Shown: positions 47,749 to 59,839 of the stretch, one piece after another
Numbering within the stretch: the stretch's first letter is position 1
Layout of the letters: every line of letters starts with the position of its first letter
Origin: a virus
Lineage: Duplodnaviria; Caudoviricetes
DNA: 64,000 nucleotides
Virus record (IMG/VR): IMGVR_UViG_3300043434_000734
Span: 96,001 to 160,000 of that record
Strand: one strand, 5' to 3'
Made by a program: the position numbers and the translations under genes
The notes under the pieces: model-generated
Database searches by the model: none
Seen by the model: the letters and a program-made list of their open reading frames with translations, nothing else
What the model was told of the DNA's origin: nothing

Positions 47749-47756
47749 TATCTTTG
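47749..47756 (+). promoter_or_regulatory. Bacteroidota-type -7 element TATCTTTG
   Basis: TAnnTTTG upstream of leader peptide 1. Confidence 0.75.
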
Positions 47757-47786
47757 TAAAAAGAAACAAACATTAATAAAAATTCA

Positions 47787-47885
47787 ATGAGACAATTTAC
47801 ACATACAATGTCGTTTACAATCTGTTCAAAATGGGCGGATGAAACTCGTATGTCCAATAGTCTCAGAGATATTAATCACGGTTAA
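47787..47885 (+). CDS. Putative attenuator leader peptide 1 (MRQFTHTMSFTICSKWADETRMSNSLRDINHG)
   Basis: A-rich start; carries an 8-nt complement of the downstream terminator arm. Confidence 0.65.
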   Translation: MRQFTHTMSFTICSKWADETRMSNSLRDINHG

Positions 47886-47911
47886 ATGTAAGTTTAACTA
47901 ATAGAATTAAG

Positions 47912-47945
47912 AAACCCTGAGACTTCAAAATCTCAGGGTTTTTTG
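47912..47945 (+). terminator. Terminator/attenuator directly before tRNA-Ala
   Basis: aaaccctgaga-cttcaaaa-tctcagggttt plus T-tract. Confidence 0.9.
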
Positions 47946-47950
47946 TTTAT

Positions 47951-48023
47951 GGGCCTGATGTCAACGGCAGACCATCTGATTTGCAATCAGAATGAATGGG
48001 TTCGATTCCCACAGCGTCCACCA
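47951..48023 (+). tRNA. tRNA-Ala(TGC), bulged acceptor stem, encoded CCA
   Basis: tctga-tttgcaa-tcaga; G3:U70. Confidence 0.8.
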
Positions 48024-49558: not shown

Positions 49559-49629
49559 TGCGGGGAGGAAGGTTCCCGACCAGTCTCATAAGCTGTGTCT
49601 CCCGAGTTCGATTCTCGGCCCCGCAACCA
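49559..49629 (+). tRNA. Atypical tRNA-Met(CAT): initiator-like acceptor, short D-arm
   Basis: tgcgggg/ccccgca-acca; ctcataa loop. Confidence 0.7.
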
Positions 49630-49680: not shown

Positions 49681-49688
49681 TACATTTG
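49681..49688 (+). promoter_or_regulatory. Bacteroidota-type -7 element TACATTTG
   Basis: Same tacatttgtaaaacaataa context as 56016. Confidence 0.75.
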
Positions 49689-49709
49689 TAAAACAATAAT
49701 GACAGAAAA

Positions 49710-49838
49710 ATGGCGAAAGCACCGAGAACATCGAAAAGAGTTGGTAAAGTGGCAAGTAAAGCATTAAGAAGTAAAAAAAGTAGCAAGACAACAAAAACTC
49801 TTGCGGGAAGTTCTTTGAGACAACGGAGAAAAAAGTAA
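49710..49838 (+). CDS. 42-aa highly basic peptide (MAKAPRTSKRVGKVASKALRS...)
   Basis: Below the ORF-track cutoff; promoter and A-rich start upstream. Confidence 0.65.
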   Translation: MAKAPRTSKRVGKVASKALRSKKSSKTTKTLAGSSLRQRRKK

Positions 49839-49843
49839 AATAA

Positions 49844-51735: not shown

Positions 51736-51894
51736 ATGAAGAAGATTGTATTTTTATTGTTAGTAATGGTTACAATGAGTAGTTGTTTATATACAACATA
51801 TAGACGACCTTATTATCAACGATATCCGACTTATCAGAAACATTATCAACCAAATAAAAAATATAAACCTTACTTTAGACCAGGTCGTTGGTAA
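51736..51894 (+). CDS. Small Tyr/Arg/Pro-rich lipoprotein
   Basis: MKK-hydrophobic-MSSC lipobox. Confidence 0.75.
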   Translation: MKKIVFLLLVMVTMSSCLYTTYRRPYYQRYPTYQKHYQPNKKYKPYFRPGRW

Positions 51895-51948
51895 AAAATA
51901 TTTACTATTAAATTGAATTTTTATATATTTGTATATACTTATTAAGAA

Positions 51949-52053
51949 ATGAAGAACATAAATAACATATTGTCACTTAGTACTAGACCATTAAATAATG
52001 GTAACGGGTATGGTGTGCAACCCGTGAATTTATGTTCGGATACTCATATTTAG
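51949..52053 (+). CDS. Putative attenuator leader peptide 2 (MKNINNILSLSTRPLNNGNGYGVQPVNLCSDTHI)
   Basis: TATATTTG promoter at 51924; tgttcgg complementary to the terminator 5' arm. Confidence 0.55.
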   Translation: MKNINNILSLSTRPLNNGNGYGVQPVNLCSDTHI

Positions 52054-52075
52054 AAATTTAATTAATTAAAATATA

Positions 52076-52111
52076 GACCCGAACGACTTAAAAAATTGTT
52101 CGGGTTTTTTT
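52076..52111 (+). terminator. Terminator/attenuator before the second tRNA block
   Basis: gacccgaacga...ttgttcgggtt plus T-tract. Confidence 0.88.
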
Positions 52112-52142
52112 ATGTTATTTTTTTTCTTTATATTTGAAATGT

Positions 52143-52155
52143 AGTTCTTTGACAT
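52143..52155 (+). promoter_or_regulatory. boxA-like element AGTTCTTTGACAT
   Basis: Follows TATATTTG (52129-52136); similar copies at 49809, 56042, 59421. Confidence 0.6.
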
Positions 52156-52169
52156 TGTGGAAATGATTT

Positions 52170-52254
52170 GCTCGGGTGGTGTAATGGTAGCCACGAGGGA
52201 CTTAAAATCCCTTGGACAGAAACGTCCGTGCCGGTTCGAGTCCGGCCCCGAGTA
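52170..52254 (+). tRNA. tRNA-Leu(TAA)
   Basis: aggga-cttaaaa-tccct; long variable arm. Confidence 0.95.
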
Positions 52255-52369
52255 CAATGTAATGACTTAGAAATAAGTGACGGAACAGACGCTATGTATG
52301 AAATGGAAACGTTTGAAACATTTTAAAGATGTTGATTCGACACAAACCGTACAGACATTACATTAAATT

Positions 52370-52443
52370 GGTCCAATAGCTCAGCTGGATAGAGCAACTC
52401 TCTTCTAAAGAGTAGGTCTCAGGTTCGAATCCTGATTGGATCA
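52370..52443 (+). tRNA. tRNA-Arg(TCT)
   Basis: actct-cttctaa-agagt. Confidence 0.95.
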
Positions 52444-52588
52444 CGAAGATAATGGTTTTCACCACCTTACGGATGTCGACAATCCACGGTGGAATCTGAA
52501 AACAGCACCCTCTGCCGAGCGCTCGTAAAACTACGATTAAGCAGTTAAGATTGGAACGAGACGGGTATTCCAACATTATCTTTATTTT

Positions 52589-52661
52589 AGAGTAGTTGAC
52601 CAATCGGTAGGTCCCTTGCTTTGGGAGCAAGTGTGTGTAGGTTCGAGTCCTGTCTACTCTA
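52589..52661 (+). tRNA. tRNA-Pro(TGG)
   Basis: cttgc-tttggga-gcaag. Confidence 0.9.
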
Positions 52662-52668
52662 CAAAAAC

Positions 52669-52740
52669 GTTGGTATAGCTTAATGGTGAAGCATTCGGCT
52701 GTTAACCGAAAGACTGTAGGTTCGAGCCCTACTACCAACG
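52669..52740 (+). tRNA. tRNA-Asn(GTT)
   Basis: ttcgg-ctgttaa-ccgaa. Confidence 0.95.
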
Positions 52741-52747
52741 CAAAAAT

Positions 52748-52824
52748 ACCCGTATGGCGGAATTGGCATACGCGTCAGATTTAGGATCTGAATTTTGTAG
52801 GTTCGAGTCCTACTATGGGTACCA
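52748..52824 (+). tRNA. tRNA-Leu(TAG), short variable loop, encoded CCA
   Basis: tcaga-tttagga-tctga. Confidence 0.88.
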
Positions 52825-52870
52825 GGGATTGGTTGACACTAAACAACAAAACCAAAAGGAAGTGTAAAAT

Positions 52871-52954
52871 TGGAGGATGGGTGAGTGGCTAAAACCGGCA
52901 GACTGTAAATCTGCTCTCAGAACGGGTACGGGGGTTCGAATCCCTCTCCTCCAA
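52871..52954 (+). tRNA. tRNA-Tyr(GTA)
   Basis: gcaga-ctgtaaa-tctgc. Confidence 0.95.
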
Positions 52955-52968
52955 CAAAAACAAAAACT

Positions 52969-56063: not shown

Positions 56064-56870
56064 GGCCGCCTATGGTCGATTAAAATAAACCACGAAAGTG
56101 GGATAAAGTGACGAGTCCTTGGTTGGGACAAGTTGCGGTTTCAGTAATGGAACTTGAGTAGGCAAGTGGAGTATCGTTGAACCTTAAGTACTGAGGGTAA
56201 CACTTTAGGGAAAGTGGTTTGATGACTGAGCAATCCGAGTTGTTTGGTTGAGGTGGGAACACCAATAAGAATAATCCATAGAGTTATTGTGAGAAATATG
56301 GTTATCCGACTATATGATTACGTGATTCAATATGATGGGAATCTTAAAACCGAAAGGTATGGTGAAGTACGAGTGGTGTCGTTATCATCCTTTATTAAAC
56401 TCTACCAAGGGTTTAGTTTTGAAGGGGTCCAAAAATATGGTAGCAGGGATGTTACAGAGAGTAGTTTAGTATCGAGTCGCTCAAAAGGTGGCTTGGCTAG
56501 GTGACGAACCACTACTTTCCAAATTCGGATAACTAAATTTTGTTAATTTTGGTTTAACAACTTAAAATCATACAAGAAAAAGTGTTCGTCAGTCGTTGTA
56601 GACAGGTGGCTACATAGTCGTGAGGGGTTCACGGCCACAAAGGGTCTCAAGCCCAATGTGATTTTTAAAAAAGTTCTCTAAACCCGCAAGGTTGAATCAG
56701 GGAGGCATCTTTGATGAGTAATGAGTATTAAAAGAGTATATAACGACTCAAGGATTGGTTAATCTAATTGACCGCCGCTGATTGGTACTACTCAAAAGGT
56801 AGTGGATATGGGAAGAATCAAATAATGTCCCTAAGTCAATCAAAAAATGGTGTAATCTCAGCCCTTTCTT
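56064..56870 (+). ncRNA. ~800-nt structured RNA, GOLLD-like candidate
   Basis: GC-enriched, no credible ORF, many hairpins, long-range 5'/3' pairing, next to tRNAs. Confidence 0.65.
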
Positions 56871-59836: not shown

Positions 59837-59839
59837 CAT

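Follow-up and report, generated by a model that had tools for sequence, protein, structure and literature searches.

We consider it likely that the DNA just upstream of a block of phage tRNA genes is a multivalent, ribosome-mediated (leader-peptide) transcription attenuator that gates this block. The window, by which we mean the whole 64,000-nucleotide stretch of DNA that was analyzed, is phage-like, has a G+C content of 32%, and carries 24 tRNA genes, a tmRNA, and a GOLLD RNA, all on the plus strand. The block in question (52170-52955, plus strand) starts with tRNA-Leu(TAA) at 52170 and continues with tRNA-Arg(TCT), -Pro(TGG), -Asn(GTT), -Leu(TAG), and -Tyr(GTA). The first-pass annotation had already read the region upstream as an attenuator, and this reading is supported by a conserved leader frame and terminator, by three mutually exclusive helices, and by leader codons that track the downstream tRNAs. 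The anatomy of the unit, its conservation, the co-variation of its helices, and the codon match are observed features of the DNA.

The unit begins with a predicted promoter, P1 (51901-51931, plus strand), which consists of a -33 element, TTTA (51901-51904), a 19-nt spacer, and a -7 box, TATATTTG (51924-51931), and as judged from its sequence fits the Bacteroidota -33/-7 promoter form. The leader ATG lies 17 nt downstream of the -7 box and opens a frame of 34 codons plus TAG (51949-52053, plus strand), with the predicted peptide MKNINNILSLSTRPLNNGNGYGVQPVNLCSDTHI, in which Asn accounts for 7 of 33 codons, compared to 7.2% in the long frames of the window (P = 0.008). An intrinsic terminator (52076-52111, plus strand) follows; exactly 23 nt separate the stop codon from ACCCGAAC at 52077. 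The promoter box, the 34-codon ORF with its seven Asn residues, the 23-nt gap, and a tgttcgg at 52033-52039 that duplicates the terminator 3' arm had all been proposed before and were found as described, with the TTTA element 19 nt upstream of the promoter box; tgttcgg is an exact 7-nt copy of 52097-52103.

Relatives of the unit were collected by pattern scans of IMG/VR contigs, which gave 25 distinct variants of this leader class in phage contigs, mostly of tens to hundreds of kilobases, with the largest over 300 kb. A 16-mer scan with GTTCTTTGACATTGTG returned mostly unrelated contigs, and a distant blastn search against 50,697 deposited phage genomes yielded only tRNA matches to the region. 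At a mean column identity of about 68% at the DNA level, the stop codon is located 23 to 31 nt before the terminator stem in 25/25 relatives, and GTTCGG lies inside the frame, 41 to 51 nt upstream of the stem, again in 25/25. The frame itself is open at 30 to 36 codons in all 25, and its in-frame length changes are whole codons. The -7 box of P1 reads TAnnTTTG in 22 of the 25, the -33 element is TTTG in many of them, and the stretch from P1 to the ATG is strongly conserved. We judge from these comparisons that the arrangement of frame, arm copy, and terminator is more than chance. Where downstream sequence is available, the relatives carry a block led by tRNA-Leu(TAA), in the same general order with minor variations; the block of L190 begins at tRNA-Pro. 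In one relative, a tRNA-Asn with an ATT anticodon replaces the one with GTT. A tRNA with a CTA anticodon, called Pyl by ARAGORN and possibly an amber suppressor, was also found in relatives, just before the leader promoter; the loci recorded for these anticodons are ∼200 nt upstream of the terminator in L235 and 354 nt downstream in L177.

That 25 variants of this AT-rich region all retain an open frame of such length speaks for translation of the leader. Pro14 is invariant in the relatives and is encoded by CCA, CCG, or CCC, the Asn19 and Gly20 codons show synonymous changes, and variability is modestly higher at third codon positions (34.2 bits) than at first and second positions (29.1 and 27.3 bits). 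The peptide had no match to a Pfam or PHROG family.

The terminator hairpin (52076-52106) has a 5' arm at 52076-52086 (region 3), a 9-nt loop, and a 3' arm at 52096-52106 (region 4), which form 11 pairs with a predicted energy of -14.2 kcal/mol, followed by seven T residues at 52105-52111; it is located 58 nt upstream of tRNA-Leu. A simple terminator scan missed it because of the 9-nt loop. It is kept in all relatives, with an invariant stem core, a loop that is variable in sequence and length, and a spacer that varies as freely as the loop. The GTTCGG at 52034-52039, which ends region 2 (52028-52039, plus strand), is the copy of the terminator 3' arm and is complementary to CCGAAC (52079-52084) of the 5' arm, in agreement with the earlier claim that the two can pair. 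Within this copy, the Ser codon is TCG in 24/24 relatives; TCG makes up only 10% of the Ser codons in the long frames of the window. In relatives found via the promoter alone, GTTCGG, ACCCGAAC, and TTCGGGTTTTTT are invariant, and GTTCGG is likewise kept in those found via the central motif alone; since GTTCGG was not a search term in either case, the constraint was not produced by the search. Two stem changes occur among the central-motif relatives: one is an A-to-G change that retains a wobble pair in both the 2:3 and the 3:4 helix, and the other is a compensatory A:T-to-G:C change at the outermost pair, outside the 2:3 overlap. This pattern is the one expected of a strand that is bound to pair with two partners.

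A further helix joins region 2 to the start of the leader. In the minimum free energy fold of the window sequence, region 1 (51954-51963, plus strand; GAACATAAAT, codons 2 to 5) forms the 5' strand and pairs with ATTTATGTTC of region 2 (52028-52037); in general, helix 1:2 joins frame nucleotides 5 to 22 with the 16 nt that end at the region 2 GTTC. Its partners change together in the relatives (CTTGAT/ATCAAG, CTTGG/CCAAG, CTTAAA/TTTAAG, and CATACTA/TAGTATG), and in L127 and L152/L212 the 5' strand lies 9 nt further 3' with the helix still kept. Because of such shifts in register, RNAalifold on a MAFFT alignment saw only the terminator; helix 1:2 was therefore scored by duplex energies against permuted partners. 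Cognate strands gave a mean of -11.4 kcal/mol and non-cognate strands -7.0 kcal/mol, and with GUUC excluded the co-variation reached a permuted-partner p of ≤2.5e-4, or ≤0.01 with eight representatives only. As helix 1:2 shares GUUC with the GTTCGG copy and co-varies, helices 1:2, 2:3, and 3:4 are mutually exclusive, as in trp-type attenuators. Helix 1:2, which was absent from the first-pass annotation, is what would make the switch translation-dependent.

Translation, stalling, and regulated read-through are what we infer from this arrangement, and the switch would work as follows. The host RNA polymerase would start at P1, and a ribosome would begin the 34-codon leader at once. If the leader were left untranslated, region 1 would pair with region 2, the 3:4 terminator would form, and transcription would stop at 52105-52111; when the sequence was folded with no ribosome mask, helix 1:2 formed and then the terminator. 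If the leader were read smoothly, the ribosome would arrive at the stop codon, 14 nt past GTTCGG, and cover region 2, and the terminator would again form; a mask at the stop codon covered region 2 and left region 3 free for the terminator. A stall within the first ∼10 codons (Asn3, Asn5, Asn6, Leu8, and Leu10) would instead place the ribosome over region 1, so that the free GTTCGG could pair with the CCGAAC of the 5' arm before the 3' arm is made. With 2:3 formed, the polymerase would continue into tRNA-Leu, -Arg, -Pro, -Asn, -Leu, and -Tyr. The 2:3 pairing did form in the fold with a ribosome mask at codons 5 to 6; it speaks against the model that a ribosome stalled at codons 13 to 22 would leave regions 1 and 2 both uncovered. 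Also against it, the 2:3 helix of this class has only 6 pairs (-6.2 kcal/mol alone and -9.4 kcal/mol with its extension, against -14.2 kcal/mol for the terminator), and eight pairs are found in other leader classes. Since the leader is rich in codons read by the downstream tRNAs, their supply would rise when decoding is slow and be shut off once it is restored.

The leader codons match the tRNAs that follow. Among residues 2 to 28 of the window leader, 15 of 27 belong to the set {L,R,P,N,Y}, against a background of 26% (P = 0.001), and 23 of 27 belong to the amino acid set of all 12 downstream tRNAs, against 51% (P = 2e-4). Asn is enriched 2.3-fold, Pro 2.0-fold, and Leu 1.6-fold; Lys, Asp, Glu, Phe, and His are depleted, and their tRNAs are located in other blocks. 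Leader Arg is encoded by AGA in 25 of 26 cases in this class, with Arg(TCT) downstream. These enrichments and the AGA codons match the six downstream tRNAs, which indicates a multivalent sensor that is not specific for Asn. The emphasis that the first-pass annotation had placed on Asn thus stands as far as the seven enriched Asn residues are concerned, and Asn is the largest component of the multivalent sensor, but the unit does not respond to the description of an Asn-specific device, given that Pro and Leu are enriched and Arg is AGA as well.

The match extends to other leaders. Over 16 leader classes obtained with a stricter clustering, the codon-tRNA match, scored by wobble rules, was 0.337, compared to 0.216 (standard deviation, 0.022) for shuffled assignments, and 0 of 50,000 shuffles reached the observed value; a first, looser clustering, which merged nearly all leader classes, had given a permutation p of 0.08. 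A leader containing ..GFNGCDWQQEP.. is followed by Gly, Trp, Cys, Gln, Glu, and Asp tRNAs, one with MRFNNNNQQQYQQNN.. by three Asn tRNAs and a Gln tRNA, and one with ..FKKSFKWFNHMF.. by Trp, Phe, His, and Lys tRNAs, while the tRNAs behind ..KWYQR(CGT)NI.. include Arg(ACG).

The same design was found with unlike peptides. A scan of IMG/VR viral contigs with this terminator sequence returned 89 distinct sites. At 63 of these, a short ATG frame ends immediately upstream of the stem, and tRNAs follow immediately downstream. These 63 tRNA-linked units represent many leader classes with unlike peptides, several of which carry the arm copy in the same reading frame, and an upstream GTTCGG copy is present in 44 of the 63. 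As a control, bacterial and archaeal genomes were inspected for terminators identical in sequence; of 132 such terminators, 3 had an upstream copy and none had a downstream tRNA. Terminators other than CCGAAC types were also found before tRNAs in the loci collected, and in 9 of these 18, 6 nt or more of the terminator's own 3' arm recurred upstream, against 12% in controls. Since the copy corresponds to the arm in these units as well, region 2 follows the terminator, whatever its sequence. One leader class, MKTTNKHMNICNPSIQW... (L150, L214, L165, and relatives), has the ACCCGAAC terminator without an upstream GTTCGG and instead repeats the 5' arm (AACCCGAGC) within its frame; in that class, the switch may be wired differently.

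Unit 1 of the window (47749-47951) is among the nine units with a copy of their own arm (copy TCTCAG, stem CCCTGAGAC). It resembles the present unit in its promoter, its frame of ∼32 codons, its upstream 3'-arm copy, its terminator, and the tRNAs behind it, and it differs in peptide, tRNA set, and, in this window, stem sequence. Its motif I-C-x-K-W precedes a Cys-like tRNA and tRNAs for Ile, Phe, Lys, and Trp. The Cys-like tRNA (47951-48020, plus strand), which directly follows the unit 1 terminator, was missed by ARAGORN, scored 32 bits against the Rfam tRNA model, and has a GCA (Cys) anticodon as read by eye. In the relatives L149, L176, and L143, unit-1-type leaders have the same ACCCGAAC stem as the present unit, so the leader classes appear to be related cassettes, and unit 1 and the present unit look like diverged paralogs. 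The present unit had been called a second independent attenuator; the shared layout is confirmed, but, with the ACCCGAAC terminator in unit-1-type leaders of relatives, the two are not truly independent.

A second promoter-like -7 box, P2 (TATATTTG; 52129-52136, plus strand), lies between the terminator and the tRNAs, as the first-pass annotation had cautioned when it pointed out that a further promoter there could drive the tRNAs independently; this caution is justified. Of the 25 relatives, 16 have a canonical P2, 7 have a degenerate one, and 2 lack it. The distance from the terminator to the box is 18 to 22 nt in the window and in most relatives with a canonical P2, and 31 to 32 nt in two. 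With a canonical box after the terminator, the tRNAs may be transcribed without read-through, and P2, where present, probably adds a tRNA supply that is independent of the attenuator. In L212 and L190, the gaps between terminator and first tRNA measure 33 and 25 nt, respectively, and contain no TAnnTTTG box, which speaks for read-through there. A conserved motif, GTTCTTTGACATTGTG (52144-52159, plus strand), lies 14 nt before tRNA-Leu, and at 50 distinct sites the form TTCTTTGA[CT]AT ends 12 to 19 nt before the first base of a tRNA. A fuller form, GTTCTTTGA[CT]AT(A/T)TTGG, occurs after terminators, promoter boxes, and other tRNAs (for example, at loci L164, L212, and L150); in L212-type units, 9 nt separate the terminator from the motif. 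The GTTCTTTGACAT motif is present before tRNAs with or without P2 and may be a promoter element, a processing signal, or a protein site; if it is a promoter element, L212 and L190 need no read-through and the argument from these two loci fails. A processing stem formed by GTTCTTTGACAT and the first tRNA's trailer was rejected (cognate, -7.25 kcal/mol; non-cognate, -7.18 kcal/mol), and pairing with the start region of the leader fails, by inspection, in the ATGATGAAC subfamily. RNA libraries (24 runs) were available as assembled contigs only, which show neither RNA ends nor levels. One freshwater metatranscriptome contig (X10, record 9) extends from a relative's leader frame to beyond tRNA-Leu, and it was given no weight, as it is possibly DNA carry-over; another (X2, record 17) begins upstream of P1 and has its end within the T run, and the sequencing run it comes from is probably DNA.

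P2 and the GTTCTTTGACAT motif are central to another explanation, which we regard as unlikely: P1, the frame, and the terminator would form an independent monocistronic micro-gene whose 34-residue product has its own function, the tRNAs would be driven by P2 or the motif only, and their adjacency would be inherited synteny. The canonical P2 in 16/25 relatives fits this explanation, as do the strength of the terminator (-14.2 kcal/mol with 7 U) and a peptide core (Pro14, GNG, and VQ) that is conserved with synonymous codon changes, but this peptide is without a protein family match. A micro-gene would also leave unexplained why an invariant copy of the 3' arm is kept in frame with a rare TCG codon, why units with other terminators contain matching copies, why leader codons track tRNAs over 16 classes, and why helix 1:2 co-varies.

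Quite unlikely, in our estimate, is an attenuator with another input, in which a TnaC- or Erm-like arrest peptide would sense a small molecule, a phage factor, or general translation stress and not particular tRNAs. The central peptide RPLNNGNGYG is conserved beyond what a mere string of sensor codons needs, so that an arrest-peptide component is possible; the mid-peptide pattern [RN]-P-[LV]-x-x-G-N-G-x-G shows a degree of conservation that is unusual in leaders, and a stall there would leave region 1 uncovered, which makes a different switch logic conceivable. However, other classes share the RNA layout but have unlike peptides, each matching its own tRNA set, and the residues exchanged for one another at the variable leader positions of the present class are Arg(AGA), Asn, Tyr, Pro, and Leu, the amino acids of the downstream tRNAs. 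That the ∼170-nt transcript from P1 to the terminator is a structured small RNA acting in trans, with a secondary role for the frame, is very improbable: the transcript does fold better than shuffled sequences (z = -3.3), its long-range helix is conserved, and trans roles of attenuator-derived RNAs are described for Sinorhizobium (PMC6614838), but the frame is open in 25/25 variants with whole-codon length changes in a genome of 32% G+C, there is no Rfam family match, and the codon-tRNA match would be unexplained.

The preferred reading, an attenuator that senses decoding of its leader codons, has close models in the amino acid operon leaders. In trpL, hisL, pheL, and leuL, a short frame rich in sensor codons lies near the promoter, helices 1:2, 2:3, and 3:4 compete, and an intrinsic terminator follows; the position of the stop codon lets a ribosome that terminates there cover region 2. 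The thrL and ilvL leaders sense several amino acids jointly. The present unit has the structural features of these leaders and is multivalent like thrL and ilvL. It differs in that it is phage-borne, has a Bacteroidota-type promoter and no Shine-Dalgarno sequence, carries its sensor codons scattered and not in a run, and in most members is followed by a second promoter-like box after the terminator. Moreover, amino acid operon leaders gate biosynthetic enzymes, whereas this unit would gate tRNAs, so that sensor and product are the same molecules. In Escherichia coli, pheST is controlled by a leader-peptide attenuator (the pheM leader) that acts on an aminoacyl-tRNA synthetase; there, too, the controlled product is a component of the translation apparatus and not a biosynthetic enzyme, but the genes are protein genes on a bacterial chromosome and a single amino acid is sensed, compared to six phage tRNA genes here. 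T-box riboswitches likewise read the state of specific tRNAs by competing terminator and antiterminator helices and control translation-related genes, but they bind uncharged tRNA directly, involve no ribosome or leader frame, and occur mainly in Firmicutes. Rfam models (Trp_leader, Phe_leader, His_leader, T-box, and others) gave no match at E ≤ 1 within 51900-52160; the missing T-box match and the conserved leader frame together point to sensing by the ribosome. Weak matches to the Rfam Trp and Phe leaders were obtained at 59838, at another terminator. The pheV gene of E. coli was considered as a precedent and rejected, as the K-12 sequence upstream has no Phe-rich frame or terminator, and our literature searches turned up no description of tRNA genes controlled by a leader peptide.

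Several other features of the window were recorded. A 52-residue lipoprotein-like frame (51736-51894, plus strand), with a signal peptide plus Cys followed by a Tyr/Pro/Arg/Lys-rich tail, is situated between tRNA-Glu and P1; as 51761-51893 is missing from a relative's contig, this frame is dispensable. At 49681-49843 (plus strand), a TACATTTG box is followed by a frame of 42 codons in which Lys, Arg, Ser, and Thr are abundant (MAKAPRTSKRVGKVASKALRSKKSSKTTK...); this frame ends 5 nt before tRNA-Thr(TGT) without a terminator in between and may be a different kind of leader. A tRNA-like sequence at 49560-49629 (plus strand), also missed by ARAGORN, has a CAT anticodon by eye and only a weak match to the Rfam tmRNA clan. 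The GOLLD RNA (56457-56864, plus strand; full-length match to RF02032, 314 bits, E = 9e-90) lies between the tRNA array and the phage tmRNA (59436-59839, plus strand), which has the tag GNVYNNMEIAGLLATSKVAA. Upstream of the tmRNA are TACCTTTG (59407) and TTCTTTAACAT (59423), the latter differing from the pre-tRNA motif by one mismatch.

The purpose of tRNA genes in phages has been a matter of debate for decades, and next to nothing is known about how these genes are regulated. Among the main proposals discussed in the literature are codon compensation and the replacement of tRNAs destroyed by host defenses (PMC10264068 and PMC11555353). From the unit described here, the phage probably makes more of these six tRNAs when ribosomes decode the matching codons slowly. 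If this is true, the phage gauges decoding capacity directly and adjusts the supply of tRNAs to demand, by an attenuator whose product is the very molecule that is sensed. A wider picture is possible, and we put it forward tentatively, as one that we would not yet favor: large phages of Bacteroidota may have split their tRNA arrays into demand-sensing sub-operons, each with a codon-matched leader, with which the host ribosome would detect the host tRNAs that have been lost and only those would be replaced, in a self-tuning counter-defense circuit. The loss so detected could result, for example, from tRNA-cleaving defense systems or from degraded host translation machinery. The units are small, modular, and widespread, with many leader classes that are each tied to their own tRNA set, and the leaders themselves would predict which tRNAs limit a given phage.
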